From Dehalococcoidia bacterium (GTDB lineage Bacteria > Chloroflexota > Dehalococcoidia > Dehalococcoidales > SURF-40), in contig QZJL01000029.1 of assembly GCA_003599745.1 (NCBI GenBank), positions 1-48,334 on the forward strand: a stretch of DNA of 48,334 nucleotides, in the 5' to 3' direction. The first letter of the stretch is position 1. Every line of letters starts with the position of its first letter. Shown here piece after piece: positions 21,099 through 46,154 of the stretch. The notes below the pieces were generated by a model that searched no databases, was not told the origin of the DNA, and worked only from the letters and a program-made list of their open reading frames with translations. Made by a program: the position numbers and the translations under genes.

Positions 21099-22544
<1,446 letters not shown>

Positions 22545-23886: not shown

Positions 23887-24432
23887 ATGGCATTAATGAC
23901 AGTTCAGGAGGTCGCTGATTATCTTCGGGTCACAACGAAGACGGTATACAGACTGCTTGAGAAAGATAGCATACCGGCGACAAAGGTAGGCCGTCAATGG
24001 AGATTTGACGAGTCCTCAATTGATGTCTGGCTGCGTCAGCAGCCGGCAGAAAAAAAAGTAGCGAATATCCTTGTCATAGACGATGACCAGATGATTTGCC
24101 TGCTTTTCAAAGACGCTCTTGAGGCATTGGGGCACGCTGTAACCACCGTTGAAAACCCTTTAAAAGGATTGGACCTGGTGAAAAACGGAGATTATGACCT
24201 AGTATTTCTTGATTTGAAAATGCCGGGAATGGATGGTGCTGAGCTTTTAGCACAAATCAGGATAGCCAAACCCAAGCTCCCGGTAACTGTGATTACCGGT
24301 TACCCGGAAAGCGAACTTATGATGCGTGCTCTGGTACATGGCCCGCTAGGCGTGATGAGCAAGCCTTTTCGGGTATCGGATGTCCTGATCGCTGTTAATA
24401 ACTACCTCAGATTCGGCACAACGACCAAATAA
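23887..24432 (+). CDS. Response regulator with reversed architecture: N-terminal excisionase/MerR-type HTH and C-terminal receiver domain
   Basis: HTH: MTVQEVADYLRVTTKTVYRLLEKDSIPATKVGRQWRF. REC: ILVIDDD, LVFLDLKMPGMDG, VITGY, SKPF. The ORF is open from ATG 23827; ATG 23887 has a GAGG SD and matches the usual HTH N-terminus. Confidence 0.8.
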   Translation: MALMTVQEVADYLRVTTKTVYRLLEKDSIPATKVGRQWRFDESSIDVWLRQQPAEKKVANILVIDDDQMICLLFKDALEALGHAVTTVENPLKGLDLVKNGDYDLVFLDLKMPGMDGAELLAQIRIAKPKLPVTVITGYPESELMMRALVHGPLGVMSKPFRVSDVLIAVNNYLRFGTTTK

Positions 24433-24437
24433 TATTT

Positions 24438-24457
24438 AAGGAGGGATTATGCGCTGA
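24438..24457 (+). promoter_or_regulatory. Strong SD followed by a two-codon mini-ORF (ATG CGC TGA) upstream of the precursor-peptide gene
   Basis: AAGGAGGG (24438-24445), 3-nt spacer, then ATG-CGC-TGA (24449-24457). Confidence 0.35.
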
Positions 24458-24522
24458 ACATCTTCGCCCATTGAACCATGTCTTCATATTACTGCAAACG
24501 AAATTTCGAAAGGAGTCATCAA

Positions 24523-24753
24523 ATGAGGTCTCAGGCATTACAAAGTCTGGTCAAAAAAATCTTCGGCGACGAAAAGACGAGGCTCGAATTCGAGTCAAAC
24601 CCGGAAGGCGTTCTATCCCAGTTCGATCTATCGAAACAAGAGAAAAAAGCGGTGATGAACACCTATTCTAAACTGGGGTTGGTGAGCGGTAACTCTCAGC
24701 AGATGGAGGCAACGCTTAAAGCCACTATCGATTGGAGTGCCCCCGAGCCGTGA
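24523..24753 (+). CDS. 76-aa candidate RiPP/pheromone precursor peptide (NHLP/Nif11-like leader, Trp-containing C-terminal core)
   Basis: AAAGGAG SD lies 7 nt before ATG 24523 (listed ORF starts at 24478). Leader: LVKKIFGDEKTRLEFESNPEGVLSQFDLSKQEKKAV. C-terminus: ...GNSQQMEATLKATIDWSAPEP, containing the only Trp. Its stop overlaps a GTG of the next gene (GTGA). Confidence 0.6.
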   Translation: MRSQALQSLVKKIFGDEKTRLEFESNPEGVLSQFDLSKQEKKAVMNTYSKLGLVSGNSQQMEATLKATIDWSAPEP

Positions 24754-25715
24754 CGCCACTGCCGTGGCAAGAAAAACAGACTCAGGTTCTCAGAAGTGAG
24801 ATAGATTTAGTTCTGGCGCCTTTGACTAACATTGCTAGTTTATGCGATTTGGTTAAAGAATCTCTTACACAGGAGAGAAGGGCATTTGCCACCGAACACG
24901 AGAATAGCCGGCCGTGGCCTCTATTACCTTTGATAATATGTGAGGCGATCTCAGGCCAATATGAAGTAGCAATCCCTGTGGCAGCCGCTCGCCAATTTAT
25001 GGTAGCTGCTGCTGACATCTTTGATGACATAGAGGACGAAGATTCTCCGAGGTCGTTACCTGCCAAATATGGGGTTGCAGCGGCGACAAATGTGGCGACA
25101 ACTCTTCTAATTCTGGCAGAAAGAGCTGTTACGCGACTTAAAGATAAAGGCGTCTCAAATGAGAATGTAGTCCGAGTCATGGACTCTTTCAATTCGTTCT
25201 ATGCCACTGCATGTGTTGGGCAACACTTAGACCTCTCTTTAACTCCAGAAACAGCGGCCTCGGAGGAAATCTATCTCAGAATCATAGAATTGAAGTCAGC
25301 GTCTCAGGTAAAGTGTGCCTGCAATATAGGAGCGTTGCTAGCAGGAGCTGACCGGCAATTGATCGCCAAGTTCTCAGATTTTGGTTATAACCTTGGAATG
25401 GCTTCACAAATCACAAATGACATTCAGGGGATTACTGATGGAAAGGACATTTTTAATAGAAAAATAACTCTGCCTGTAATATACGCACTAAATCAAACGG
25501 AGGGGGACATTCGGCTAGAGCTAGAGACCGTATTCTGCAAAAGGTCCAAGCATGAACCTGCTACATCATTAATACAGGATTTGTTGTTTCGTACCGGTGG
25601 CATTCACTACGCTGTGGTAAAGATGGAACTATATAGACAGAAAGCTATGGATATCCTATCAGATATTACAAAGTTAGGAATTGTTGTAGAAAGGCTAAAA
25701 CTGTTCCTAGAATGA
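24750..25715 (+). CDS. Polyprenyl-synthetase-family protein with degenerate catalytic motifs; ComQ-like peptide prenyltransferase candidate
   Basis: First acidic motif retained (IFDDIEDED). The second DDxxD is replaced by NDIQG (GMASQITNDIQG). GGKRxRP and RRG signatures are absent. GQHLDL and KITLPVIYAL match the family fold. The ORF is open from TTG 24732; GTG 24750 gives GTGA coupling to the peptide gene. Confidence 0.75.
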   Translation: MTPLPWQEKQTQVLRSEIDLVLAPLTNIASLCDLVKESLTQERRAFATEHENSRPWPLLPLIICEAISGQYEVAIPVAAARQFMVAAADIFDDIEDEDSPRSLPAKYGVAAATNVATTLLILAERAVTRLKDKGVSNENVVRVMDSFNSFYATACVGQHLDLSLTPETAASEEIYLRIIELKSASQVKCACNIGALLAGADRQLIAKFSDFGYNLGMASQITNDIQGITDGKDIFNRKITLPVIYALNQTEGDIRLELETVFCKRSKHEPATSLIQDLLFRTGGIHYAVVKMELYRQKAMDILSDITKLGIVVERLKLFLE

Positions 25716-25731
25716 AACAAACGGAGTTCCC

Positions 25732-28155
25732 TTGAGTTCTTCAGATAATAGATTAAACCGGCTGCTAACTGGGAAAGAAGGACTGAAGCCAACGCTGCTT
25801 TTATTCTTTGCCTTCTGCATTGTAGCTATTTCCCTAATTTTCTTCATCTCAAGTATCGGCAAGCCGTCTATCGGAGTAAGTCTCACTCGTGATTCTCAAG
25901 GTTGGCTAGTCAGCATCACGGATGCAAACGGCTTAGCAAATGAGACTGGTATTAAAGCCGGTGACAGGCCAATAGAAATCAATGGTCAGCCAGCCCAAGT
26001 GTTCTTAGAAAAATACGAAGAGGTCGGTTTGGTTCTTGGAAGACTAATCCAGAAACTCACTGTAGTCGACAATGTTGGACAGACCAAGACGGTAGTTCTT
26101 GAAGGTACTTCACCTTCATGGGAATCGATCATTAGCCGGATCTCGAGGTTTGCAGTCTCCTTCATATTTTGGATAACCGCATTCTTCGTGTTCTTTAAAA
26201 AACCGAAAAGCATTTTATCTCTACTGCTAATATTAATGGGGCTTTCATTCGGTCTTGTCCTTAGTGGGAACATGGCATCTGAGGTTGCAATTGCCACAGC
26301 GGTCTGGTTTGAGGTTACTGCGACAGCTATCGCGCCTTGGCTGCTCCTCCATTTTTTCCTTGCGCTACCCCAGGAGCGAGTTTGGGCTCGGGGAAACAAC
26401 CTCGTATATCTTATCTATCTTTTACCGCTAATTGCTGCGGTTTTATTCCCTATTGTTGGTTATGCTAATGGGCAACCTGTGCCGGGATTTCGATCCTTCA
26501 GGTACGCCTTGTATGCATCGGGATTTATAGCAGTAATTTGTGTGGCAGTCGTCAACTACTTCCGTACTGATTTGACCAGAACAAGGCAGCAAATGAAGAT
26601 AGTGTTATTCGGCTGTCTTGCTGCCCTAATTCCTCCCCTAGCTCTCTATATTATCCCGTCAGCGATATGGGGACGGGCCATTCTTCCCGGAGAAATAAAT
26701 ATTTTGTTTGTTGCGTTCATACCCCTGGCTATGGGTTACGCAGTCGTCACAAAACAGCTGATGGACATAGACGTTATTATGAGGCGGAGTTTGATTTATG
26801 GCCTGGTCACCATAGTGATGGCAGCAATTCTATCGGCCGGTATTTTTATTGCATTTGCTTTCCGTCGCACTATGGGGGTTCCCGAAGAAATACTGATTGC
26901 TCTGATTCTGGGAGGGATTGCCACCGCGTTATTCGGGCCAACCAAGAAGGGCGTTGAAAACCTCATTGACAGGCTTTTCTACAAAGACAGGTACGACTAC
27001 AAGCAAATAATCCAGAGCCTGGGTATCTCTTTGAACTCCGCTATTGGTTTAACCGCAGTTTCACGCCTCGTCGTCGGCACTGTGGTTAACACGTTGAATC
27101 TGGCTGGGGGATGTTTGTTTGTCAGGACACAATCCGGTTCTTTCGAGGTTGGAGCGGCACAGGGCTCGTATATTGACCCGGCCCAACAAAGACAGCTGCT
27201 GGAGCTGATTCCGAAGAGAAGCCGCCTGGTGGAGTTTCCAAATAATGCGCCATCAGAAAGTCCTGACGCAGCCTTCCTGGTGCCGCTCGTAGTAGGTGAG
27301 AAAGAGGTGGGTGTTCTTTGTCTGTCGCGTAAGAAAACCAGACAAGATTTTTCGCCGGACGACCTGTACCTAATCCAGGGGATTGCTTCAGCAGCTTCAA
27401 TGGCGTTGCACAGCGTTATGCTTAAACGTGACGTCAGTATCCGGGCTACTTTTGTCTCGGTCGCCTCCCACGAACTTCGCACCCCGTTGACTTCAATCGT
27501 AGGTTATGCCGACTTACTGCTGCAGCGCGACCCCCCGGCTGCCACCAGGAAACAGTGGCTCAAAAACATTCTTGATAACAGCCAGAGGGTCAGCGATATG
27601 GTGGACGACCTCTTGAATGTCAGCCGAATTCAGTCCGGCAAAACCAGTATCAAGCTTGAAAGAGTGAGCTTACCCGGTCCTCTTGAGGAGACTCTCTCCC
27701 TAAGCCGCGAAACTACCAACAAACATGAATTTGTTGTTGACATAGAACCCGGCCTTCCCTATTTATCGGTTGACCGGAACAAGTTCGGTGAGATTATTGG
27801 TAACCTTCTAAGCAACGCCATTAAATATAGCCCGAATGGTGGACTCATTACCCTTTCCGCTCGCTCTGAACCAGCAGAACACCGCGTAATTGTGAGCGTA
27901 TCTGATGAGGGTATTGGGATAGCTCCCGAAGATAGAGCCTCGCTGTTTACATCTTTTCACCGGATTCAGAGACCCGAGACCAAGGGAATCAGGGGAAGTG
28001 GCCTGGGTCTCTACATAGCCAAAGAGTGGACGGAGGCGATGGGGGGAAATATCTGGGTGGAGAGCGAATTGAACAAAGGCTCAACTTTCTTTGTGGCGGT
28101 TCCGGCTAAGGCTTCAAGTAAGGTGGGACAAGAATCAAGATTACCTGCCGAATAG
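25732..28155 (+). CDS. Polytopic membrane sensor histidine kinase (TM, PDZ-like segment, about 9 further TM helices, GAF-like, HisKA, HATPase)
   Basis: GIKAGDRPIEINGQP (PDZ-like), multiple hydrophobic helices, H-box VASHELRTPL, N box LLSNAIKYSPNGG, G boxes DEGIGI and GSGLGLYIAKEW. TTG start preceded by ACGGAG. Confidence 0.9.
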   Translation: MSSSDNRLNRLLTGKEGLKPTLLLFFAFCIVAISLIFFISSIGKPSIGVSLTRDSQGWLVSITDANGLANETGIKAGDRPIEINGQPAQVFLEKYEEVGLVLGRLIQKLTVVDNVGQTKTVVLEGTSPSWESIISRISRFAVSFIFWITAFFVFFKKPKSILSLLLILMGLSFGLVLSGNMASEVAIATAVWFEVTATAIAPWLLLHFFLALPQERVWARGNNLVYLIYLLPLIAAVLFPIVGYANGQPVPGFRSFRYALYASGFIAVICVAVVNYFRTDLTRTRQQMKIVLFGCLAALIPPLALYIIPSAIWGRAILPGEINILFVAFIPLAMGYAVVTKQLMDIDVIMRRSLIYGLVTIVMAAILSAGIFIAFAFRRTMGVPEEILIALILGGIATALFGPTKKGVENLIDRLFYKDRYDYKQIIQSLGISLNSAIGLTAVSRLVVGTVVNTLNLAGGCLFVRTQSGSFEVGAAQGSYIDPAQQRQLLELIPKRSRLVEFPNNAPSESPDAAFLVPLVVGEKEVGVLCLSRKKTRQDFSPDDLYLIQGIASAASMALHSVMLKRDVSIRATFVSVASHELRTPLTSIVGYADLLLQRDPPAATRKQWLKNILDNSQRVSDMVDDLLNVSRIQSGKTSIKLERVSLPGPLEETLSLSRETTNKHEFVVDIEPGLPYLSVDRNKFGEIIGNLLSNAIKYSPNGGLITLSARSEPAEHRVIVSVSDEGIGIAPEDRASLFTSFHRIQRPETKGIRGSGLGLYIAKEWTEAMGGNIWVESELNKGSTFFVAVPAKASSKVGQESRLPAE

Positions 28156-28539
28156 GGGACGAGAATAAAAAAGATATTAATAGTTGAGGATGACGAGAGC
28201 GTCAGGGACCTGCTCTGTGCCATATTCAACACCTTTATGGGGCGTTACCATACCGTATGCGCCAAAGATGGTGAAGAGGCTCTCAGCATCGCGCGGATTG
28301 ATGTCCCGGATATTATTTTGCTGGATATCAATTTGCCTGGCTTGAACGGATACCAGGTTTGCAGGCTTGTTAAGGCAGACCCGGGGATGTCAGAAACCAA
28401 AGTCATAATGATAACCGGTATGGCGCAAAGCTACGACCAGTCAAAAGCCAGGGAAGCGGGCGCTGACGGTTATTTCACAAAGCCATTCAGTTCCGCCGCC
28501 CTGGCTAAAAAAGTGGGGACTCTTCTTGAGAGCAGATAA
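28156..28539 (+). CDS. Stand-alone receiver (REC) domain whose conserved N-terminus precedes the first canonical start codon; in frame with the kinase across one TAG
   Basis: The frame opens right after the kinase TAG: GTRIKKILIVEDDESVRDLLCAIFNTFMGRY... No ATG, GTG or TTG occurs in frame before ATG 28237. REC residues present: EDD, ILLDINLPGLNG, MITG, FTKPF. Confidence 0.75.
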   Translation, partial: GTRIKKILIVEDDESVRDLLCAIFNTFMGRYHTVCAKDGEEALSIARIDVPDIILLDINLPGLNGYQVCRLVKADPGMSETKVIMITGMAQSYDQSKAREAGADGYFTKPFSSAALAKKVGTLLESR

Positions 28540-28541
28540 AG

Positions 28542-29108
28542 ATGCAAGTGGCAGAGCGCGACGCAGTAGTGCTAGTTGACGAGCAGGGCCGTGACAAGTA
28601 TCAAGATGATGGCCGGCTATCCATCTCCGGGAAGATAGAGGCGCATCGCCGTGGTCAATTACATAGGGCGGTTTCTGTCTTCATCTTTAACGATGGGAAC
28701 GAAATTTTGCTGCAGAAGCGCGCTGATGGTAAGTATCATTCCCCGGGAAAGTGGACTAATACCTGTTGCACTCATCCTGTACCGGGTGAGAGTCCAGTTA
28801 AAGCTGCACGAAGCAGGCTCGTTGAGGAAATGGGAATTGTAACCCAGTTAACCGAGGCCTTTGCGTTTTTATATCGAGCCGATGTCGGAAATGGTCTAGT
28901 CGAAAATGAATTCGACCACGTATTCGTCGGGGTCTTTAATCAGAAACCAAACCCTGACCCGGATGAAGTGTCCGACTGGAAATGGACGCCTGCAAAAGAG
29001 TTAAGACAAGAATTGGATATTAATCCTGATGAGTATAGTCCCTGGCTTCGGCAATGCTTCAGCGAAGTGTTTGAATACAGGCTACGAGACGCGAGCGGTT
29101 GCATATGA
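28542..29108 (+). CDS. idi: Isopentenyl-diphosphate delta-isomerase, type 1 (Nudix fold)
   Basis: HRRGQLHRAVSVFIFN, LLQKRA..K, KWTNTCCTHP (catalytic Cys), VENEFDHVFVG (catalytic Glu). Confidence 0.88.
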   Translation: MQVAERDAVVLVDEQGRDKYQDDGRLSISGKIEAHRRGQLHRAVSVFIFNDGNEILLQKRADGKYHSPGKWTNTCCTHPVPGESPVKAARSRLVEEMGIVTQLTEAFAFLYRADVGNGLVENEFDHVFVGVFNQKPNPDPDEVSDWKWTPAKELRQELDINPDEYSPWLRQCFSEVFEYRLRDASGCI

Positions 29109-29881
29109 ACTACCTGACTCTATTTGTTTCATTGCGTTGCACACAGACGTGTGCTCATTGTCTGTACGGATGTTCTCCCGCTAAAGGAGAGCACATGTCC
29201 CGGGAAGTTTTCATAAGGTCAGTAGCCATTGCCAAAGAGAGTCGAATCACGACATTGAATTTCTTCGGTGGGGAACCATTGCTTAACCCGCATTTCTTTC
29301 CCATGCTGCAGACAGCGTTCGAAAATGGTTTTTCCGTAATGCTCGCAACAAATTGCCGTCCTCTTGCCCGAAAAGAGCTTTTCGCCAAATTTCTAAGCAT
29401 TACCAAAACCCACCAAGAGAAAATACATATTTTCACTGCCAGAGACAAGTTTCATCTGGAGCATTTCGACCCGTTTAATGTCATCGCCGCTTTGAGGAAA
29501 GAAAATTACGAAGTCTCCGTTAGTGATTATTCTAATGAGGCAATTCTATTGTCTGAATATAACTTTTACAATCAGAACCTGCGGGACCTGAACACGCTCT
29601 ATTCGTGTTGCGGGGGCCGGTGGACGGACTATCTCGGAGTCTTGCCAGATGGTGCGTGGACGATTTGCCCCCCGTCTCTGGAAGCATTCGGTAACATCTT
29701 TTCTAACAGCCTTGAAGAGATTGTGGAATTCAAACGTGGATTGCCGCTACGCTATGCCGAAGGGTGTACCGATTGTCTGACAGACTTCAAGATCTTCCGG
29801 AAAGAATTCGAGATGGGGAAAGCCTTTCAAGCCGCGGAAAAGTCAAAGACAGGCAGCACACCCAATCCTGACGCGGTGTAA
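29105..29881 (+). CDS. Radical SAM enzyme with a SPASM/twitch-like C-terminal Cys domain (RiPP-maturase-like)
   Basis: CxxxCxxC in SLRCTQTCAHCLY and FFGGEPLL. C-terminal CGGRWTDYLGVLPDGAWTIC fits CX13GX4C, followed by CTDC. ATG 29105 overlaps the idi stop (ATGA). Confidence 0.8.
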   Translation: MNYLTLFVSLRCTQTCAHCLYGCSPAKGEHMSREVFIRSVAIAKESRITTLNFFGGEPLLNPHFFPMLQTAFENGFSVMLATNCRPLARKELFAKFLSITKTHQEKIHIFTARDKFHLEHFDPFNVIAALRKENYEVSVSDYSNEAILLSEYNFYNQNLRDLNTLYSCCGGRWTDYLGVLPDGAWTICPPSLEAFGNIFSNSLEEIVEFKRGLPLRYAEGCTDCLTDFKIFRKEFEMGKAFQAAEKSKTGSTPNPDAV

Positions 29882-29915
29882 CCAGGAAGTTCAAACGCAT
29901 TTTAGGGGTAATATT

Positions 29916-31022
29916 ATGAATGTTGCCAAAATCCTCGTCGTGGATGATGAGGAAGCCGTGCGAGAAGTGATTCAGGCGATGCTTGAAACTAAAGGGTATG
30001 AAGTAGACGTCGCGGGGGACGCTGTGGAAGCATTAGCAGATGCCAAGCAAAAACAATACGATTTGCTCATCACGGACATCTGTATGCCCGAGATAGACGG
30101 TTTGGAGCTTAGCCGAAGGTTGCGGGAATCAAGCCCTGATATTGCTTCAATACTGGTTACCGGATACCCGACGGTTGACACGGCAATGGCAGGGGTCAAG
30201 ACAGGCGTCTATGACTATATAATCAAACCGGTAAGGAAGGATAAACTTTGTCATTCCGTAGCCAGTGTCATTAAAAGGCAACAGCACGTGCGTTTTCTGG
30301 AGAAAATGGCGCGCGATTCACAAAAAGAGGAAAACGACCGGGGGCAGTTCGTCAACGTCCTTGCCCACGAACTTTACACATCACTTACACCGATGCTCAC
30401 TGGCGCCGAACTAATGCTGGAAAGAGTCAAAGGTGAGCCGAACACTGTCGAGGACAGGTTGGCAAAGGTAATGTTCGGCAGCGCACAGATGATGCGCTAT
30501 CGCCTCGACAAATTGCTGCTGCTCGCCCGGCTTGAGGCAGGAGGCTTTGTCTTACATTTAACTCGGTTTGACGTTCTGACCATCATCAAGCAAGCAAAAG
30601 CAAGGTTTGACGTCGTAGCATCCGAGAAGGGTCAGCGCTTGGAATTGGATATACCGGATAGCCCACTTCCCATCAAAGCCGATCGCTCTTGTCTCGAGCA
30701 GGTTATAACAAACCTCTTGGAGAACGCGTTGAAATTTACACCCGAAGGCGGAAAAGTTCTATTAGAAGCGAAGATTGTCGAGGGTGAACTGTTGGTCAGT
30801 GTGCAAGACAGTGGGGCCACATTTACTGACGAAGAGCGTCAGCGTCTGATGCAACCATTTTGGAGGAGCGAGATAGACAGGCAAAGGATTCCCGGGGTTC
30901 GCCTAGGGTTAGCTCTGTGCCAGAAGTTAGTTGAAATTCAAGGTGGTACGATTTGGGTAGAGGGCGGCAAGGAAGGAGGAAACACTTTCGCTTTCGCTGT
31001 GCCGGTTTCAGCCACTGAGTAG
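29916..31022 (+). CDS. Soluble hybrid REC-HisKA-HATPase sensor kinase
   Basis: REC: ILVVDDEE, LLITDICMPEIDG, LVTGY, IKP. H-box LAHELYTSLTP, N box NLLENALKFTPEGG, G box GVRLGLALCQKLVE. No TM segment. Confidence 0.88.
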   Translation: MNVAKILVVDDEEAVREVIQAMLETKGYEVDVAGDAVEALADAKQKQYDLLITDICMPEIDGLELSRRLRESSPDIASILVTGYPTVDTAMAGVKTGVYDYIIKPVRKDKLCHSVASVIKRQQHVRFLEKMARDSQKEENDRGQFVNVLAHELYTSLTPMLTGAELMLERVKGEPNTVEDRLAKVMFGSAQMMRYRLDKLLLLARLEAGGFVLHLTRFDVLTIIKQAKARFDVVASEKGQRLELDIPDSPLPIKADRSCLEQVITNLLENALKFTPEGGKVLLEAKIVEGELLVSVQDSGATFTDEERQRLMQPFWRSEIDRQRIPGVRLGLALCQKLVEIQGGTIWVEGGKEGGNTFAFAVPVSATE

Positions 31023-38221: not shown

Positions 38222-40876
38222 CTACTCGTCGGCGTCCTCACCATCGGGATAGACGCCGGCGTAATATTTGGGGGAGGGACGGGCGGTGCTGGCCGTCAGC
38301 ACTTCGAGCTTTGCCACCTGCACCTTGCGGTAGACTTCCTGATAGTCCTTCTTTAAGCCGTTTACGGTGAGCAAGTCGCTGATTTTGATGCCGAAAAGCC
38401 GCTCGTTTTCCTCAAGGTAAGGCAGAATGAGTTGCCAGTCTTTTTCCGACAGAGGGGCGAACTCGCCGCCATTGAGCTGCTCATCGCTCGTCTTGCGGTG
38501 CGGGTCGCGGAGATAAATGGCGCCTCCCGAGGCCAGGGAAAAGAGATTTGAGCCCGGGTAAGGCAATTCCTGCTCGGTGATATTGCCGTCATCATCGAAG
38601 GTGACGCCGTTAACGATGACGAAGCCGCCGCCGTTTAAGGGGTCGCCGGCCATAAACGACTCCGCCAGGTAGTCAAGGCAGCTTCCGTTGATGACGACAC
38701 GCGGCCTGCCCACGGCGTTGATGAGCGGCCTCCCGGCGGCGTTACCCATGATGTAAACTTCGCCGCCTTTAGCGCCGTACATAAAGGTCTGGCCCACGTC
38801 GCCGTAAATCGCCAGCTTACCCCGTTTCATTATCTGGCCGACCTGGTCCTGAGCGTTGGCGTGTACGTAAATTTCCAGCCCGTCAATGCCGGAGGCGAGG
38901 TAATCGCCCGAGGCGTCATAGACGTCAATGCGCACCCCGTCCGAGCCGGCTCCGAGGCCTGAGCCGCAAAAACGCTGTCCCCGGTAGCCATAAGCGATGA
39001 ACTGCTTCCAGCCAAACTGGTATGCCGCCACGATGAGGCGGGCGTCGCAGTCGTCGCCCTCCGGCGGAAATTCCCTGGCATTGATTACCAGTATCTTTTC
39101 ATTACCCTCTGGCGCGCGCAAGTCGTTCCGTGTTGCCCAATCAATACGTTTGTAAGTCCCCGTTGATTTTTTGCTAATCTCCGGTATGGCAGCAAAAATG
39201 CCAGCCAAGCTCTCGCGCACCGTCTGCAGAACCAGACTACGCTTTTTGTTACCCAACGGCAGGCGGATGTCGTTGATATAGGTGAGAACGTTAACGGCGG
39301 TCGCCCGTATGGTATCATTTCCAGACGCTTCGTCTGCCAAGCCGGCGCAAAAATGCCGGAGGGCGGCGTAGTCCCAGCCGGCGATGTTCTTGCGGCAGAA
39401 CTCTTTTAGAGCTATGGCTTCGGGATTTGCCAGTGCCTCTTTTATTTTTACTTCAGCCGCTTTGCCCGAGCTTGATTTTATCGCGGCCGGCTCGACTCTT
39501 TTGCTTTCCGCTCCCACCGGCTCGCCGAACTTGTTGGTGCAGGTAAGGGTCTTGGCGCCATCAGTGCCGTCTTTTACCGTGAAGATGAAAGCGCCGCCGT
39601 CGCTCGAGCTGCCGCCGCGGGCGTTCCAGTAGCGGTCGGCGATGGGGCCAAAGCGGCTGTCCTCTCTTGCCAGGCTCTGCAGGGTAGCGTCAATCGCCTG
39701 CTTTTCCGAGCAGATAAGGCCGATTTGCGCTTCGCCGTTCTGGATGGCGAAGACCTGCGGCCTCAGCATGGCGGTATCGGTGATGCCGATGAGCTGGAAT
39801 TCTTTTCTGGCGGCGTTATTGCGGGCGATGATGAAAAACCAGGGGCCGTCCGGCGAGGCGTGGAGGTGGCTCTGCTGGATGCGCCGGTATATCGCCTGCC
39901 TGGCCACTGGTAAGCGGTCGAAGTCGTGCTCGGTGGTCGGGGCGATGGCCTCGATGATGTATTCCAGGGGGTAGCCGAAGCCCCGGCTCCAGAGGTCGAA
40001 AAGCAGCACCGAAACCTCGGTATCGGTTAGGAACTGGGGGGAAATGTTAAATTCCCTGAGATACTCGGTTATGGCGTGGTAGTTGGCGAAGTCCCCGTTA
40101 TGCACCAGGGCTTCATTCAAGCCGATAAAGGGGTGGGCGCCGCCCGGGTGCCAGACCCGTCCCTTGGTGGGGTAGCGCTGGTGGGCAATCCAGCCGTGCG
40201 CCCGGAAGTTGTCGAGTAAGTAGTATTTGGCGACCAGCTCGGCGTAGCCCACGATTTTCAAAATCATCAGGTTACGGCCGTGCGAGAGCACGAAAGCCTG
40301 TTTTTCGCCCAGCGAGGCGTAGAATTTATGGTTAAGGCGATAAGAGTTCTGGTAGATGAACTCGTCCTCGGCGGCGCGCCGGTCTAAGCCGCCGAGCCTG
40401 TTTTCGGTGATGAAGCGGCTAAGGGCGTCCTCTTTGACGCGCACGAAATAGCGGTTGACGTCGGGCGGCTTGACTTCCAGTCCCTTAATGTCGCGGTAGT
40501 CGTCAACCGTGGGCACCTTGCTTGCCTGATGGATTTCCAGATAAGGCTCGATGCACTTTTTCTCCACTCTGCCGGCGGCTTTGGGGTCGAGCAGGGCGAC
40601 CTGGAGCATGTAGTCGTTATCGAGAATGTCCGGTGACACACCGAGGTCTTCGGCCACCATGCCGACGGCGGCGATGCCGCCGCCCTTGCCGTTGCCCCGG
40701 TTATGCATCTGCACCGACGGCTCGAAAATGTGTCGTCCGCCCACCGGGAGGGAGGCGATGAAGCCGGTGACGCCGCAGCCGCCCTCTTCCGCCGCCTTGC
40801 CCTTCTCAAAGGTGTCTTCGGGTAATGCGGCGCGGGAGGCAGCTATTTTGTCGAACAGGTCATTTTTGTCAGTCAT
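38222..40876 (-). CDS. Glutamate-synthase-like protein: class II (Ntn) glutamine amidotransferase domain fused to a GXGXG (GltB C-terminal) domain
   Basis: Catalytic-Cys context EEGGCGVTGFI after a 33-aa presequence. HQRYPTKG, HNGDFANYH and DTEV are present. C-terminal region: GDVGQTFMYGAKGGEVYIMGNAAGRPLINAVGRPRVVINGSCLDYLAESFMAG. Confidence 0.85.
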   Translation of the reverse strand: MTDKNDLFDKIAASRAALPEDTFEKGKAAEEGGCGVTGFIASLPVGGRHIFEPSVQMHNRGNGKGGGIAAVGMVAEDLGVSPDILDNDYMLQVALLDPKAAGRVEKKCIEPYLEIHQASKVPTVDDYRDIKGLEVKPPDVNRYFVRVKEDALSRFITENRLGGLDRRAAEDEFIYQNSYRLNHKFYASLGEKQAFVLSHGRNLMILKIVGYAELVAKYYLLDNFRAHGWIAHQRYPTKGRVWHPGGAHPFIGLNEALVHNGDFANYHAITEYLREFNISPQFLTDTEVSVLLFDLWSRGFGYPLEYIIEAIAPTTEHDFDRLPVARQAIYRRIQQSHLHASPDGPWFFIIARNNAARKEFQLIGITDTAMLRPQVFAIQNGEAQIGLICSEKQAIDATLQSLAREDSRFGPIADRYWNARGGSSSDGGAFIFTVKDGTDGAKTLTCTNKFGEPVGAESKRVEPAAIKSSSGKAAEVKIKEALANPEAIALKEFCRKNIAGWDYAALRHFCAGLADEASGNDTIRATAVNVLTYINDIRLPLGNKKRSLVLQTVRESLAGIFAAIPEISKKSTGTYKRIDWATRNDLRAPEGNEKILVINAREFPPEGDDCDARLIVAAYQFGWKQFIAYGYRGQRFCGSGLGAGSDGVRIDVYDASGDYLASGIDGLEIYVHANAQDQVGQIMKRGKLAIYGDVGQTFMYGAKGGEVYIMGNAAGRPLINAVGRPRVVINGSCLDYLAESFMAGDPLNGGGFVIVNGVTFDDDGNITEQELPYPGSNLFSLASGGAIYLRDPHRKTSDEQLNGGEFAPLSEKDWQLILPYLEENERLFGIKISDLLTVNGLKKDYQEVYRKVQVAKLEVLTASTARPSPKYYAGVYPDGEDADE

Positions 40877-40885
40877 TGTGTTGCC

Positions 40886-42439
40886 TCATAACACCAGCTT
40901 CTTCTTCGGGGTCGGCTGATACTCCTGACGTTCTTCTTCATCCAGGTAGTCCAGGTGTACCAGCAGGTCGGAGCGCCCCACCAGTTCCCGGATGCTGCGC
41001 ATGCCGTAGCGGCGCAAAATCTCGCACCATTGCTTGCGCCAGGCGGTGTACATGTTGACCAGCCGCTGCTCCGCCCACTCCTCGCCGATTTCGCAGCCAA
41101 GCTCGGGGTCGGTGGTGGCGATGCTGCGGGCACAGCCCCGCCCGCTCTCGCAGTTGCCGCAGCGGATACATTCGAGGGCGACCAGTTCGGCGGTGCCGAT
41201 GACGGCGCCGTCGGCTCCCAGGGCGATGGCTTTCGCCACATCCACCGCGTTGCGGATGCCGCCGGAGGCCATAAAGCAAAGCTCGTCGCGCACTCCCTCG
41301 TTGAGCAAAAAGCGGTGCACTTTGGGTATGGCGTATTCGATGGGCATGGCGATGTTTTTCTTGGAAATGTCCGGGGCGGCGCCGGTGCCGCCGTACTTGC
41401 CGTCAAAATGAATGATGTTGGTGCCGGCGTAGTAGCTGCCCACCGCCACCATGTCGCAGTCGGTGGGGGTCGAGACCTTCACCGATACCAGCGCCCGGGG
41501 ATTGATTTCTTTAATCCAGTCGAGGTGCTTTTTGTGGTCTTCCACCGAGTAGACACTGTGGAAGGGAAACGGCGAAAACAGCGAGCTGCCGACCACCGTC
41601 TCGCGGATTTTGGCAACCTCGGCGGTGACTTTATCGCCCAGAAGGTGGCCGCCCAGCCCGGGTTTGGCGCCCTGGGCGTACTTGAACTCGACCACCGGGG
41701 CGCGCTGGATGGTCTCTTCCCGCACGCCGAAAAGCCCGGTCGCCACCTGGGTGATGATGTTGTCCTTGTAGGGGACAAAGGCGTCGGGGTAGCCGCCCTC
41801 ACCGGTACAGGTGAGGGTATCAAGTTTGCCGGCCGCTCGCGCCCGCGCCACCAGCACCGGCAGCGCCGTCGAGCCAAACGACATGCCGCCGGAGTAGCAG
41901 GGTAGCGAGAGCACCCTTTCCGGTCGTCCGTCCTGGCGCTTGTTAAGACAAATCGAGGTGTCAATTTCCTCATCGGGAATATCGAGATAATCTTTGGGGT
42001 CGGGGATGCGGAAGCGCATCTTGTCGAATCCGCCGCCGGAGTAGCCCAGGCTGTATTCGAGGTCAATGTAAGGCAGCTCGCCGGTCTCGGCCATGTACCA
42101 GTGTCCCAAAATCATCTCCGCCGGCCAGCGGTAGTCCCCCAGCGTCTCGATGATAGGATTAACCGCCACCGAAAGAGCCTGCTGCGGGCAGTTTTTTACG
42201 CAGTAGAAGTCGTTGGCCTGGCACTTCGGGCCGACGCACTTATAGTCGAGCGGGCGCACCGGCTGGCTGTAGCCCTCGTAACGGAGGTGCACGCCGTAAG
42301 GGCAAAGCTCGGCGCATTTTCCGCAGGAGATGCACTGCGCACTGCGCCGCACGACGTACTTGCCGATGGGGTTGCGGTAGCGGGACGGCGTTACTTTTAC
42401 CTCGGGGAGTACGGTTTTCTCAGTCATGGTGGTGCTCAC
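40886..42439 (-). CDS. Glutamate-synthase FMN-binding (central) domain protein with N-terminal 2x[4Fe-4S] ferredoxin motifs (archaeal GltB2-like)
   Basis: CISCGKCAELCP and CVKNCP, then GGMSFGS, CTGEGG, KYAQGAKPGLGGHLLGDKV, SPFPFHSVYSVEDH, ASGGIRN. The listed start is GTG 42439 (GTGA overlap with the upstream gene); ATG 42427 is an alternative. Confidence 0.85.
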   Translation of the reverse strand: MSTTMTEKTVLPEVKVTPSRYRNPIGKYVVRRSAQCISCGKCAELCPYGVHLRYEGYSQPVRPLDYKCVGPKCQANDFYCVKNCPQQALSVAVNPIIETLGDYRWPAEMILGHWYMAETGELPYIDLEYSLGYSGGGFDKMRFRIPDPKDYLDIPDEEIDTSICLNKRQDGRPERVLSLPCYSGGMSFGSTALPVLVARARAAGKLDTLTCTGEGGYPDAFVPYKDNIITQVATGLFGVREETIQRAPVVEFKYAQGAKPGLGGHLLGDKVTAEVAKIRETVVGSSLFSPFPFHSVYSVEDHKKHLDWIKEINPRALVSVKVSTPTDCDMVAVGSYYAGTNIIHFDGKYGGTGAAPDISKKNIAMPIEYAIPKVHRFLLNEGVRDELCFMASGGIRNAVDVAKAIALGADGAVIGTAELVALECIRCGNCESGRGCARSIATTDPELGCEIGEEWAEQRLVNMYTAWRKQWCEILRRYGMRSIRELVGRSDLLVHLDYLDEEERQEYQPTPKKKLVL

Positions 42440-43848
42440 ATTCCTATCCCGCTCACTTTTCGCGTGCCGAATAGCGGTGCAAAGCTATCTCTTTCGAGGT
42501 CGTCGAACCACATTGACCGGCCGACTTCGCCCCGCATCCGTCTTGCCTCGCGGATGCCGAAAGCGCCCATTACCTCCAGCAGCTGGTTGTGCCAGGCGCA
42601 CATCAGGTTGGTGATGCGCTGCGCCGCCCATCCCCGCTCAACCTCGCCGAGCTTCACCGGGCAGCTTTTGCCGTCCTTGCAGCGGTAGCAGAGACGGCAT
42701 TCCAGAGCAACGAGTAACGGCGTGTCAATCGCCACCGCGTCCGCCCCGCAGATGAGCGACTTGGCGACGTGCTCGGCCAGGATGACCCCGCCGGAAAAGA
42801 TGAGATTAACTTCCGGACGGATGCGGTTTTCCACCAGTTTGAGATGGATTTCCCGAATCATATCCTTGAGATAGCGCGGCTTTCCCGCACCCACTTCACG
42901 TCCTTTTTCGCTGCCGTAAAAGTGGATGGTATCCACCCCGGTCCTGGCAAGTTCCAGCGCCCGCGCCGCGGCTTCAGCATCCAGCGGCAGGCCGACCGAA
43001 GTAAACAGCCCCGGTTTTATAGAACGCAGGTCGGCAAAGGTTTTTTCGATGCCCGGCCCATCGGCAAGCTCAACCATGCAGCTGGCACGGATGAGGTCAG
43101 CATAGCTCTGGTAGTTGGCCGCTGTCAGGCGCGGTATTAAGCTCCCGGCGTATTCCGCGATTTGGGGTGAGTAGTTTTCTGCCTTAACGAACATCAGGCT
43201 GCCAAGCTCGCCGGCGGCTTCCGCCATCGCCAGGCGCACCGTTTCGCTCAAGATTCCGAACTCCGGCTCCTGGAAGACGATGGGCAGCGGTATTTCAAGT
43301 ATTGGCGCAGGTTCACTTGCCAGCGACATATCTTCTTTGAACTCGAGCTTTACTGGGCGGCGGGAAAGCTCGACGGTGGTGTTGATATACTCGCGCCCGT
43401 GGATGCCGTCACGGGTGGGGCGCACAATCTCCGACATGTCCGTCCAGATGGCGTCAAAGCCTTCCCCGACAAAGGGGCCTCTGTAACCGGCGCCCGAAAC
43501 CGGGATTTTGCCGGTATGCGCCTGCGCCCAGGTTGAACTGATGATATTGGGCGTAAAGTAGTCGTCGCCCATCGTCCGGTATTCCGGGTTGACCGCCATC
43601 GAGAATATGCCCTTGGTACACTCCTCGACGCAGCGGTAGCAGCTCTTGCAGATATAGAGATACTCCGGCTCGGTCATGGTGCTCCAGTGCAGGAAGTTGT
43701 CCTTGAAGATGCCGTAGACGCACCTCTTCTTGACGCAGAGGCGGCAGCTGCCGGCGCAGTCCTCGCGGAACTCCACCGTGGCATACTTGCCAACCGGCGG
43801 AAAGCGGGGGTCGGCGACTCTGGGATGTATGGCGTATTTTTTAGGCAT
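42436..43848 (-). CDS. Divergent glutamate-synthase-related paralogue with an N-terminal Cys-rich region
   Basis: The C-terminal half parallels the 517-aa neighbour: ICGADAVAIDTPLLVALECRLCYRC here, LGADGAVIGTAELVALECIRCGNC there. N-terminal Cys motifs CRLCVKKRC and CKSCYRCVEEC. Canonical FMN-site motifs are not obvious. Confidence 0.65.
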   Translation of the reverse strand: MPKKYAIHPRVADPRFPPVGKYATVEFREDCAGSCRLCVKKRCVYGIFKDNFLHWSTMTEPEYLYICKSCYRCVEECTKGIFSMAVNPEYRTMGDDYFTPNIISSTWAQAHTGKIPVSGAGYRGPFVGEGFDAIWTDMSEIVRPTRDGIHGREYINTTVELSRRPVKLEFKEDMSLASEPAPILEIPLPIVFQEPEFGILSETVRLAMAEAAGELGSLMFVKAENYSPQIAEYAGSLIPRLTAANYQSYADLIRASCMVELADGPGIEKTFADLRSIKPGLFTSVGLPLDAEAAARALELARTGVDTIHFYGSEKGREVGAGKPRYLKDMIREIHLKLVENRIRPEVNLIFSGGVILAEHVAKSLICGADAVAIDTPLLVALECRLCYRCKDGKSCPVKLGEVERGWAAQRITNLMCAWHNQLLEVMGAFGIREARRMRGEVGRSMWFDDLERDSFAPLFGTRKVSGIGM

Positions 43849-43865
43849 GATTATCTACCTGTCCG

Positions 43866-44780
43866 CTAAGCAGGCCGGGGATAGAGTTTACTTTTCTCCA
43901 CAATCTCAGGGACAACACTTTCCCACTCGATGGCCATGAGGTGGATGCCCGCCACGCCTTTAGTCTCACGCAGCTCGGCTACGGTCTCCGTGCAGATTTT
44001 GATGCCCTCTTCGGCGGCCCTGTCCTCGGGGACACCGGCCATCCGCTTGATGACCGCCTCCGGCACGCTCATACCAGCCACCTTGTTCGCCATATACTTT
44101 GCCATCCTGGTTGACTTCATCGGTGTTACCCCGGCCAGTATATAGACTTTCTCCAGCAGCCCCCGCTCTTCAGCCATTTTCAGCCACTCTTTAAAGCGCG
44201 GCAGGTCATAAACGCACTGGGTCTGGATGAACCGGGCGCCGGCGGCGATTTTTTTCGCCAGGCGGATGACGCGGTATTCGAAGGGGTCGGCGAAGGGGTT
44301 TTCCGCCGCCCCGATGAACATCTCGGGGGCAACGTTGAGTTTGTAGCCGCTCATGTCGGTGCCCTCATCGCTCATTTTCTTAACCGTATTCAGAAGGTGC
44401 ATTGAGTCAATGTCATAGACGTTTCTGGCATCGGGCTGGCTGCCGAAGGTCTGGTGGTCGCCGGAGAGGCACAGGATATTTCTGATGCCCAGGGAGTATG
44501 CTCCCATAATGTCCGATTGCAGGGCGATGCGGTTGCGGTCGCGGGTTACCATCTGCATGACCGGCTCGATGCCCATCTGGAGAAGATGGGCGCAGGCGGC
44601 GACGCTTGACATGCGCACGATGGCCGTCTGGTTATCGGTCACGTTGACGGCGTCGGTGTAGCCTTTTAAGGCCGCGCCTTTCTTTTTGATGACCTCGGCG
44701 TTGGCGCCGCGAGGCGGGCCGCACTCGGCGGTCACCGCGAACTGGCCGCTTAGTAATATTTGTTCCAGTCGGGTGGTCAT
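43866..44780 (-). CDS. metF: Methylenetetrahydrofolate reductase, MetF subunit (acetogen/anaerobe MetFV type)
   Basis: FAVTAECGPPRG, VNVTDNQTAIVRMSS, CLSGDH, and the TIM-barrel pattern typical of MetF. ATGA overlap with metV. Confidence 0.88.
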   Translation of the reverse strand: MTTRLEQILLSGQFAVTAECGPPRGANAEVIKKKGAALKGYTDAVNVTDNQTAIVRMSSVAACAHLLQMGIEPVMQMVTRDRNRIALQSDIMGAYSLGIRNILCLSGDHQTFGSQPDARNVYDIDSMHLLNTVKKMSDEGTDMSGYKLNVAPEMFIGAAENPFADPFEYRVIRLAKKIAAGARFIQTQCVYDLPRFKEWLKMAEERGLLEKVYILAGVTPMKSTRMAKYMANKVAGMSVPEAVIKRMAGVPEDRAAEEGIKICTETVAELRETKGVAGIHLMAIEWESVVPEIVEKSKLYPRPA

Positions 44781-45445
44781 ACCATCAAGTCCTCTCTGAC
44801 CAGTTTCCGGGGGCCGCCGGCGTCGGCGGTGCGCCAGTCCTTCGGGGGGACGTAGTTATAGAGCTTTTCCGTCTCGCCGAAGGCCTGGTAGCGGTCAATG
44901 ATGAGCTGCCAGGCGCAGTCGGTCTCGGGATTTACCTCGCACTTACCGTTTTTCGAGCCGCCGCAGGGGCCGTTGAGCAGCTTCTTGGAGCAACGGCTGA
45001 TGGGGCAGATGCCCGAAAACACATCCAGGACGCAGTTGCCGCAGCCCAGGCACTTCTCGGTAAAAAGCCCCGGCTGCTCCAGAATGCCGATAAAGGTGGT
45101 GTTCACCCCGGGCAGCACCGGTATTTTGGGAAAGCGGCTGGCAACCATCTGCACCCCGGCACCGCAGGCCAGTGACAGGACCGCCTGGTTCTGGGTCGCC
45201 AGGGATGCCGCCTGCCGGATGAATTCGCCCTCGCACTGGCGCTCGACCGTAAGCTCGCTGATTTTGGTTTTCTTACCGTCCTTGCCGAAGGCCAGGCGCA
45301 GCGCGGAAGCCAGCGTCGCCACCTCTTCCTCGCCGCCGGCAAAACAGGTCTTGACGCACGTCCCGCAGCCTAAAATGAGGAAATTGTCATAAGGCGCGAC
45401 CATGGCCTTGATTTCCTCAAGCGGTTTTTGCTCGCCAACTATCAT
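44777..45445 (-). CDS. metV: Methylene-THF reductase-associated MetV subunit (MTHFR C-terminal/zinc-ribbon FeS protein)
   Basis: LILGCGTCVKTCFAGG, CLGCGNCV, CPISRCSKKLLNGPCGGSKNGKCEV...CAW. Confidence 0.8.
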   Translation of the reverse strand: MIVGEQKPLEEIKAMVAPYDNFLILGCGTCVKTCFAGGEEEVATLASALRLAFGKDGKKTKISELTVERQCEGEFIRQAASLATQNQAVLSLACGAGVQMVASRFPKIPVLPGVNTTFIGILEQPGLFTEKCLGCGNCVLDVFSGICPISRCSKKLLNGPCGGSKNGKCEVNPETDCAWQLIIDRYQAFGETEKLYNYVPPKDWRTADAGGPRKLVREDLMV

Positions 45446-45484
45446 ATTCTCACTCCGCTAAAATGTGGCTAGGATTAAACTCTG

Positions 45485-45946
45485 TTAAGAGACGGGATTT
45501 GTCCCCAGCGCCTCCAGCCCGGCGAGGGTCTCTTTTAGGATGTGCTCAACAGCCGTGTCGTCTCCCTGGGTAACGTTGAAAATGTTGAGCCGCCCGCCGC
45601 CCAGCCCGATTTCATCGAGCATCTTTTTTACCCTGGCGACCCGCCTGGCCGCCCGGAGGTTACCGGAAACGTGCCGGCAGGCGCCCTCAGGGCACGCCAG
45701 CACGAGCACGGCATCGGCTCCGGCCTCGAATGCCCGCAGCAGAAAGACCTCTCGTGTCATGCTGGAGCACGGCATTTTTACGGCCTTGAGTTCGCAGTCA
45801 CCGTTGTTCTCAAAGGCTAAGTCGGCGGCATTAAAACAGTGGAATACCGTAATCTTGGGCCGGAACGCCCTTTTAGCGAGACTGACTTCCTCTGCGGTTC
45901 GGGTGGTTACCATGTTGCCCTGCCTTTTGCCGTCATTATGCGGCAA
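45485..45946 (-). CDS. mvhD: MvhD/FlpD-like hydrogenase iron-sulfur subunit
   Basis: ITVFHCFNAA...KMPCSSMTREVFLLRAFEAGADAVLVLACPEGACRH fits the MvhD (methyl-viologen-reducing hydrogenase delta) pattern. The start may be ATG 45913. Confidence 0.82.
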   Translation of the reverse strand: MPHNDGKRQGNMVTTRTAEEVSLAKRAFRPKITVFHCFNAADLAFENNGDCELKAVKMPCSSMTREVFLLRAFEAGADAVLVLACPEGACRHVSGNLRAARRVARVKKMLDEIGLGGGRLNIFNVTQGDDTAVEHILKETLAGLEALGTNPVS

Positions 45947-46154
45947 GCGGTTGCCGTTGTATGTTATTTAAATATTACACGGTATTTCGGGTTTTGTCAA
46001 GCTACGTAATTATCGGAGGGAGAAAGCCACCGGTCTTTTAGACGGCAAAATAAATGCTAAAATTGCCGTATTATTTTACATTTGAAGGTGGCGCCCCTGA
46101 CTTTGCAGCCTTTTTAGCGCCCATTTTGCCGCTGGCCGGCGGCTGATTTAAGGG

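Follow-up and report, generated by a model that had tools for sequence, protein, structure and literature searches.

Glutamate synthase (GOGAT) is the main gate through which nitrogen enters biomass. NAD(P)H and ferredoxin are known to supply it with electrons, and F420 has been proposed as a further donor. Bacteria use GltB/GltD, with structures from Azospirillum brasilense (1EA0, 2VDC and 6S6S) and Bacillus subtilis (7MFM). In the archaeal-type split GOGAT of Methanocaldococcus jannaschii, also present in Dehalococcoidaceae-like genomes, the glutaminase, the ferredoxin-fused GltB2 and the GXGXG subunits are separate proteins, and F420-dependent glutamate synthases, in which GltB domains are joined to FrhB in one chain or encoded close to it, have been proposed for methanogens and anaerobic methanotrophic archaea (ANME) (PMC9012536). 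The methylene-tetrahydrofolate (methylene-THF) reductase of Moorella thermoacetica is a MetFV-HdrABC-MvhD enzyme (Mock et al. 2014, cited by PMC5736913 and by PMC7325909), and the hdrABC-mvhD-metVF clusters of Chloroflexi have been treated without glt genes (PMC5736913). Here we describe a 48,334-nucleotide stretch of DNA (contig QZJL01000029.1 of the Dehalococcoidia bacterium assembly GCA_003599745.1, hereafter the window), in which a six-gene cassette joins mvhD, metV and metF to three glutamate-synthase-like genes.

The genome containing the window is 1.56 Mb in size and 78% complete, the window being its contig C2, and its best protein matches name Dehalococcoidales. An earlier note, made from the sequence of the window, had listed six minus-strand genes; re-reading the list of open reading frames (ORFs) confirmed their coordinates (Table 1) and their junctions, which from mvhD to the last gene measure 39, −4, 17, −4 (+8 if the next ATG is used) and 9 nt. 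Domain calls with Pfam and NCBIfam agreed with all six gene names in that note, namely the MvhD-like adaptor, MetV, MetF, a 470-aa GltB-like protein (X470), a 517-aa ferredoxin-flavin mononucleotide (FMN) GltB2 (G517) and an 884-aa glutaminase::GXGXG fusion (G884). We consider it somewhat more probable than otherwise (roughly 0.55) that these genes encode one iron-sulfur flavoprotein system, the glutamate synthase of the cell with MvhD-MetVF as its electron input.

We are confident that the X470-G517-G884 trio is the GOGAT, because domain identities, conserved catalytic residues, gene neighbourhood, a distribution complementary to that of other GOGATs and gene fusions all point to it. The glutaminase domain of G884 opens at Cys34, in the motif GGCGVTGF, after the 33-aa presequence that had been noticed ahead of the catalytic cysteine, and residue 34 of the AlphaFold model (predicted local distance difference test, pLDDT, 72) superposed on Cys1 of GltS, PurF and GlmS. 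Cys34, Arg60 and the motifs HQRYPT, HNGD and TDTE were invariant in all 49 sequences compared (the G884 of the window and 48 orthologues). The model matched the GltS alpha subunit over ~575 residues (Z 22-23.5, root-mean-square deviation ~5 Å), with the glutaminase and the C-terminal beta-helix fitting simultaneously, and it matched PurF and GlmS from their residue 1 (Z 17-18). Residues 594-860 also matched FwdC (Z 15) as well as the C-terminal domain of GltS.

G517 aligned with residues 857-1170 of A. brasilense GltS and retained the AQGAKPG...R segment. The Gln, Lys and Arg of the 2-oxoglutarate site were conserved in 69 of 74 G517 rows, the remaining five having a gap there, and one contact was changed, the Gln of GGQL being replaced by His. 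Each of the 12 cluster cysteines was conserved in 69-74 of the 74 rows. All four cysteines of the barrel motif CX2CX2CX5C were found in every row, and the bacterial and plant [3Fe-4S] motif CX5CX4C was not present; this four-Cys archaeal-style motif, which G517 shares with X470, probably binds a [4Fe-4S] cluster.

X470 was collinear with G517 over its full length (25% identity, E 1e-33), but two elements of G517 were missing from it, the GGTGA motif and the substrate loop (AQGAKPG...R, ~46 residues). Its 12 cluster cysteines were invariant, with the CX2CX2CX5C motif at the position of the barrel cluster. The AlphaFold model of X470 (pLDDT 79) superposed on the GltS FMN domain (residues 788-1195, Z 25) and on other FMN barrels (Z ~22). 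In a maximum-likelihood tree of 34 rows, drawn from 14 sampled loci and six reference barrels with most loci left out and rooted at the midpoint for drawing only, X470 and G517 formed sister clades (support 97/94) with matching sub-clades, apart from canonical GltB and also, as the earlier note had proposed to check, from the ordinary archaeal-type GltB2 of relatives. X470 is a catalytically degenerate sister paralogue of G517 and probably serves as the subunit where electrons enter; as a dead paralogue it would clearly exemplify the reuse of a catalytic barrel as an electron-transfer hub. Fusions of X470 with G517 (970-1040-aa chains) occurred in several lineages, and fusions of a GlcD-like flavin adenine dinucleotide (FAD) oxidase, Fer4 and X470 formed chains of 1176-1218 aa (L119, P0138 and P0150). 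Homologues of X470 numbered 7223 among the scored candidates, in 860 clusters at 50% identity. The idea that X470 supplies the missing GltB central domain was rejected, as the profile touches the central domain weakly, the model fits the FMN domain and the tree makes X470 the sister of G517.

The trio thus shares with the archaeal-type GOGAT an N-terminal-Cys glutaminase of the N-terminal nucleophile (Ntn) class, a 2x[4Fe-4S]-FMN barrel, the four-Cys motif, a GXGXG domain and the lack of a GltB central domain. By contrast with the archaeal type, its glutaminase and GXGXG domains are fused through a helical linker into one chain of 884 aa, it has an obligatory degenerate GltB2 paralogue (X470) and a constant MvhD, and G517 clades with X470 and scores ~285 bits against PF01645, compared with 453-466 bits for the ordinary archaeal-type GltB2 of relatives. 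G884, G517 and X470 superpose on domains of bacterial GltS, whereas the cassette lacks GltD and the central domain, carries the four-Cys rather than the three-Cys motif, has another electron input and splits and permutes its domains over three chains. The arrangement resembles the proposed F420-dependent enzymes in combining a split core with a lineage-specific input module in place of GltD, but the module here is MvhD-MetVF rather than FrhB and no F420-binding domain is present. Like the Moorella reductase, the cassette has metF, metV and mvhD side by side and belongs to the iron-sulfur and flavin electron-transfer proteins of Wood-Ljungdahl anaerobes; unlike that reductase, its operon has no HdrABC and its partner is a glutamate synthase core. 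The N-methylglutamate synthase MgsABC was weighed as well, being linked to folate one-carbon metabolism and likewise built of subunits derived from GltB (glutaminase-like, GXGXG and FMN); its three subunits lack ferredoxin domains and are encoded in a methylamine-utilisation cluster (gmaS, mgdABCD). G517 and X470 have ferredoxin domains, and the neighbours of the cassette in relatives are glnA, amtB, glnB and nrpR rather than methylamine genes. The NCBIfam scan, whose library may hold no Mgs model, returned none, and gmaS and mgd were not searched for in the genome. Full-text searches, which did not extend to subscription journals, found no description of an MvhD/MetVF-linked glutamate synthase.

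The gene set proved to be widely conserved. One genome per species was pattern-scanned, and at least 599 stretches matched, 596 of these encoding a relative; the locus counts given here rest on the best 80 of these stretches. In 80 of 80 loci the same gene set recurred wherever the contig was long enough, in at least seven phyla (by record titles Chloroflexota, Desulfobacterota, Actinomycetota, Latescibacterota, Armatimonadota, Omnitrophota and Planctomycetota), and the order X470, G517, G884 was kept where the contig permits. MvhD stood upstream of X470 in every locus with at least ~900 nt of upstream DNA, adjoining either X470 or MetV/MetF. The arrangement of the window, MvhD-MetV-MetF-X470-G517-G884, was found in ~50 loci, and in two more Dehalococcoidales contigs the same six genes had wholly different flanks. 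Other arrangements were MvhD-X470-G517-G884-MetV-MetF (5 loci), MvhD-MetF-X470-G517-G884-HdrC-HdrB-HdrL (8 loci), MvhD-MetV-X470-G517(-G884) without MetF (6 loci: L065, L066, L087, L088, L091 and L092) and MvhD-X470-G517-G884 without MetV or MetF within 10 kb (4 loci: L076, L080, L086 and L090). MetV and MetF usually accompany the core and stayed in the neighbourhood across at least three gene orders in these seven phyla. With the gene set recurring in this way, the arrangement is far beyond chance. The survey therefore upholds the claim that the two halves belong together. Of the suggestion that a split archaeal-type glutamate synthase merely happens to be co-transcribed with the reductase, the synthase core stands, but chance co-transcription is too weak an account of a linkage that survives such shuffling.

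Some variants replace the folate module. Locus L117 (genome G057, C12:2381-14100) carries a separate 613-aa GlcD-like/Fer4 protein before X470-G517-G884, with MvhD and MetFV not present, and in L119 a GlcD-like::X470 fusion is the first gene of an operon whose other two members are G517 and G884. Because a GlcD-like FAD/Fe-S protein precedes or is fused to X470 where MvhD/MetVF is missing, the input modules appear to be exchangeable, and MvhD-MetVF is probably such a dedicated, exchangeable electron-input module. An argument that the GlcD variant uses a 2-hydroxyacid donor at ~-190 mV, and that methyl-THF is by analogy the donor here, was not relied on. In L065 (8960-12951, MvhD-MetV-X470-G517) no G884 was detectable in the 8 kb downstream, and its glutaminase::GXGXG gene is perhaps at another site or too diverged for detection. 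A gene for a 23S rRNA-intervening-sequence protein (PF05635) lies between G517 and G884 in a Syntrophobacterales metagenome-assembled genome (MAG; L092:13346-13735), and the cassette MvhD of L086 carries an in-frame stop.

Genes of nitrogen assimilation surround the cassette in relatives, where glnA, amtB, glnB and nrpR occur beside it. Within 10 kb of the cassette, glnA and/or P-II genes were found in 18 of 80 loci, and in about a dozen of the 80 glnA lay directly upstream on the same strand. One locus (L092) reads glnA-amtB-glnB-mvhD-metV-X470-G517-(23S intervening-sequence protein gene)-G884, another (L090) is flanked by guaA, pyrG, nadE and hisF, and in genome G057 the string runs on into hisH, hisF, a GXGXG gene of 257 aa and nrpR, while amtB, glnB and glnA are found farther on along the same strand. 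The presence in L117 of a gene for an NrpR-type nitrogen repressor, typical of methanogens, in a Dehalococcoidia genome is noted separately.

The distribution of the trio complements that of other GOGATs. Among 201 sampled Dehalococcoidia genomes, 163 had a GXGXG protein; X470-negative genomes had a ~1500-aa GltB or a ~260-aa stand-alone GXGXG protein, and 14 of 16 X470-positive genomes examined had a single GXGXG match, of the G884 type. As the relatives are not independent, we read this as a pattern and not as a statistic, and by this pattern the cassette appears to stand in for the canonical or archaeal-type GOGAT in Dehalococcoidia. The genome of the window has glnA, and in its 78%-complete assembly no glutamate dehydrogenase (GDH), GATase_2, second GXGXG or other strong Glu_synthase match was found. 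The question raised in the earlier note, whether hdrABC and another GOGAT exist elsewhere in the genome, thus has a partial answer, an Hdr cluster having been found on contig C9 and another GOGAT not.

These results bear on the reading slightly favoured by the earlier note, in which the cassette is a methylene-THF reductase whose GltB-like proteins replace HdrABC as the input; to this we add that GOGAT chemistry would then have been lost or reversed with glutamate as the donor. The operon indeed has no Hdr, X470 sits beside MetF and its substrate loop is lost. Yet the glutaminase and 2-oxoglutarate sites are strictly conserved, the context is one of nitrogen assimilation, carrier genomes have the trio in place of other GOGATs, and it is found without MetF(V), with a GlcD-like protein and together with HdrCB-HdrL, so that we regard this reading as very improbable and its polarity as wrong. 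Its argument from the extra FMN-domain paralogue, held to be superfluous in a plain glutamate synthase, fails as well, since X470 is among the constant components of the GOGAT core. The glt-like genes also occur in relatives as an independent operon, which that note had named, if coupled with demonstrated GOGAT activity, as evidence against its preferred reading; this was found at the level of genes in L076, L080, L086, L090, L117 and L119, with glutamate synthase activity predicted.

Turning to the folate half of the cassette, the four cysteines of MvhD were invariant in the alignment, as were 13 of 13 cysteines of MetV among 55 sequences. No GltD, FrhB or pyridine-nucleotide domain, and no F420 or hydrogenase domain, was found in the six proteins by Pfam and NCBIfam, and no solved structure containing MetV was found. 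A complex prediction for X470 with MvhD scored 0.01, below the mark, and was used neither for nor against an interaction. We hold with moderate confidence that MvhD-MetVF is the electron-transfer partner of the trio. An unlikely alternative is that one operon holds two independent enzymes, a ferredoxin-dependent split GOGAT (X470, G517, G884 and perhaps MvhD) and a biosynthetic MetVF reductase, co-regulated and uncoupled. It would suit the lineages that have the trio and MvhD without nearby MetF/MetV, and both ferredoxin-like N-terminal domains could take electrons from free ferredoxin; in Clostridium ljungdahlii and Thermoanaerobacter kivui, MetVF alone is reported to be active. Two independent enzymes are harder to reconcile with a MetV/MetF-trio linkage that outlasts gene-order changes in several phyla, with tight or overlapping junctions, with MvhD, an adaptor known from Hdr complexes, lying between both halves in every architecture, and with the presence in the genome of other MetF and MetV genes for the Wood-Ljungdahl pathway.

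Those other genes lie at two loci. On contig C4 (C4:21600-31740, L101) a complete acs operon encodes FolD, AcsD, CODH, ACS, AcsC, AcsE, MetF and DUF3786; its MetF, which is 43% identical to the cassette MetF, has no MetV and is followed by the DUF3786 protein. On contig C9 (C9:952-8001, L102) lie HdrC, HdrB, HdrL (a 1487-aa HdrA/GltD-type fusion), MvhD and a second MetV. Because the genome has this MetF on C4 and this MvhD and MetV on C9, the cassette MvhD-MetVF is an extra set, and by gene content the C9 Hdr-MvhD-MetV cluster and the acs-operon MetF are predicted to serve the Wood-Ljungdahl pathway. The Moorella-like reductase genes of this genome are split between the two loci. The FlpD match of the C9 MvhD holds one in-frame TGA, which by analogy with VhuD is possibly a selenocysteine codon. 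ACS was present in five of five relatives tested that have the six-gene arrangement (type A), and in the complete genome G014 a MetF::MetV fusion comes after HdrC-HdrB-HdrA/GltD, in addition to the cassette.

Domain scans found no Hdr gene in the cassette or its flanks, and it can be asked whether the cassette pairs with the HdrCB-HdrL of C9, as a counterpart of the ten-gene operon of other phyla, in an NAD(P)H-oxidising, flavin-based bifurcating complex whose exergonic branch, glutamate synthesis and/or methylene-THF reduction, would pay for ferredoxin reduction. Eight loci have MvhD-MetF-X470-G517-G884-HdrC-HdrB-HdrL as one string, MvhD is a known docking adaptor of HdrA, and the HdrL of this genome, accompanied by HdrB, HdrC and the second MvhD and MetV, is 44-49% identical to those of the ten-gene operons with HdrCB-HdrL. 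Full-length HdrL was found in 9 of 15 carriers, however, and not in the six-gene carriers G150 (97% complete), G052 and G008; moreover, a separate Hdr cluster, in genomes that have one, is mostly accompanied by MetF and MetV genes of its own and resembles a self-sufficient Moorella-type reductase. We consider such pairing improbable, and the related idea that the six-gene type requires HdrL in trans is likewise weakened by the carriers without full-length HdrL.

Taking the six-gene system to be a glutamate synthase with MvhD-MetVF as its electron input, we propose the following scheme. G884 would shed its 33-residue propeptide, whereupon Cys34 would hydrolyse glutamine, and the GXGXG beta-helix would keep glutaminase and synthase in contact, as it does in GltS. 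Ammonia would pass to G517, where 2-oxoglutarate would be aminated and the imine reduced at the FMN, which would be fed by the four-Cys barrel cluster and two ferredoxin-type clusters. X470, a duplicate of G517 minus the substrate loop with all three cluster sites kept, would act as the electron-entry subunit and iron-sulfur hub of the core, and MvhD, with its [2Fe-2S] cluster, and MetV would connect it to MetF. MvhD-MetVF would take the place of the GltD, ferredoxin or FrhB of other glutamate synthases. The constant part would then be MvhD with X470-G517-G884, and the variable part MetVF, MetF with HdrCB-HdrL-MvhD-MetV, or a GlcD-like flavoprotein. We infer complex formation, the electron route and, above all, the donor.

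The electrons would come most simply from oxidation of 5-methyl-THF at MetF, since the six-gene form has just two redox substrate sites, one for folate on MetF and one for 2-oxoglutarate on G517, and this oxidation gives the simplest closed scheme. The potential E0' of 5-methyl-THF is ~-200 mV, against ~-120 to -140 mV for 2-oxoglutarate + NH4+/glutamate, and by these textbook values methyl-THF-driven glutamate formation would be downhill. Even so, methyl-THF as the electron donor is a tentative proposal, and the main alternative would be reduced ferredoxin entering at MetV or X470. The fuller picture, in which the cassette is one member of an apparently undescribed class of glutamate synthases whose constant core of glutaminase::GXGXG, active GltB2 and dead GltB2 hub takes lineage-specific donor modules and here uses methyl-THF from the Wood-Ljungdahl pathway as reductant, is one that we put forward with similar reserve.

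Several points weigh against the coupled system as we describe it. Because some relatives lack MetF, or both MetF and MetV, MetF cannot be the universal donor, and the ten-gene operons also carry HdrCB-HdrL with an NAD(P)H-type domain; by analogy with Moorella, MetF may be the acceptor in that type. To our knowledge, the MetVF enzymes characterised so far act as reductases. The flux of glutamate synthesis is small compared with catabolic methyl-THF turnover. The substrate of G517 could differ, given its low PF01645 score beside that of the ordinary archaeal-type GltB2 of relatives. Finally, with the genome 78% complete, the assembly could be missing a GDH or a further GOGAT.

The pattern scan matched the genomes of at least 596 species of anaerobic bacteria, and all 80 loci examined have the system, including those of abundant sediment Dehalococcoidia and complete-oxidising sulfate reducers. 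Among the carriers are MAGs assigned to Desulfobacula, Desulfosarcina, Desulfonema limicola, Desulforapulum and Geobacter. In most sampled Dehalococcoidia carriers the cassette is apparently the sole GOGAT, and the known donor subunits are not present. The identity of the donor bears on how energy-starved anaerobes pay for nitrogen assimilation and on whether this is tied to the Wood-Ljungdahl pathway's methyl branch. If methyl-THF is the donor, the cassette would be a direct redox link between one-carbon and nitrogen metabolism. In Hdr-containing relatives, electron bifurcation could couple the exergonic formation of glutamate to the reduction of ferredoxin. The system could also bear on the long-standing question of the redox partners of MetVF-type reductases.

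Table 1 Genes of the cassette and candidate control elements, in window coordinates.
Feature	Position	Strand	Basis
Distal inverted repeat CGGCAA-N14-TTGCCG, upstream of the -35 box	46043..46068	.	Sequence inspection
Sigma-70-like promoter TTGACA-17 nt-TAATAT, upstream of mvhD	45972..46000	-	Consensus scan, 10/12 matches, best site of the region; consensus match only
Candidate operator: CGGCAA-N4-TTGCCG palindrome, after the -10 box and before the mvhD start	45941..45956	.	Sequence inspection
MvhD-like [2Fe-2S] adaptor, 142 aa	45485..45913 (ORF open to TTG 45946)	-	PF02662 FlpD, 86.8 bits
MetV, iron-sulfur subunit of MetVF-type methylene-THF reductase	44777..45445	-	PF12225 (DUF5981), 122.8 bits
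MetF, flavin subunit of methylene-THF reductase, second genome copy	43866..44780	-	PF02219 (MTHFR), 139.7 bits
X470: ferredoxin-like domain and GltS-FMN-type barrel	42436..43848	-	Partial Glu_synthase match, C-terminal half only, 60 bits
G517: 2x[4Fe-4S] ferredoxin domain and glutamate synthase FMN domain (GltB2-like)	40886..42439	-	Fer4; PF01645, ~284-285 bits
G884: propeptide 1-33, class-II (Ntn) glutaminase, helical linker ~470-590, GXGXG beta-helix	38222..40876	-	PF01493, 42.5 bits (above cut-off); weak PF13522 (GATase_6)

An FlpD-type gene does head the operon, but its start is more likely ATG 45913, which has an AAGGCAGGG ribosome-binding site, than the TTG 45946 given earlier. Between the -10 box of the candidate promoter and this start, the CGGCAA palindrome may be an operator. 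A GCGGCAA-N4-TTGCCGC sequence occupied the equivalent leader position in two other Dehalococcoidales loci (L004 and L005), and positions 45927-46069 of the window hold four ACGGCAA/TTGCCGT half-sites in 145 bp around the promoter, the sole such cluster of the genome. A search of the 1.56-Mb genome returned three copies of CGGCAA-N4-TTGCCG, the two others within long ORFs, and thus gave no evidence of a regulon. The mvhD leader had no match in Rfam, and its RNA fold was no better than that of shuffles and not significant.

The cassette proteins were unusually alike across phyla when those of the window were compared with L020, L028, L042 and L051. Window G517 was 84% identical over the tree barrel part, and 82% by tblastn, to that of L020, from a MAG labelled Syntrophobacterales, and 71-76% identical to Desulfobacterales and Actinomycetota versions, and the tree mixes phyla. 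This likeness suggests that the cassette has moved horizontally as a whole, or that L020 was mis-binned.

The flanks of the cassette in the window are unrelated to it, with an ABC transporter downstream and a divergent phosphorylase-like gene upstream. Farther away, positions 24000-31000 of the window have a G+C content of 45-52%, against 57-63% elsewhere, and hold genes for a polyprenyl synthetase, a GAF sensor kinase and a hybrid response regulator/kinase; this segment may be acquired DNA. At 21147-22544 the window encodes an A/V-type ATP synthase subunit (ATP-synt_ab with a V/A-type C-terminal domain) in this Dehalococcoidales genome.

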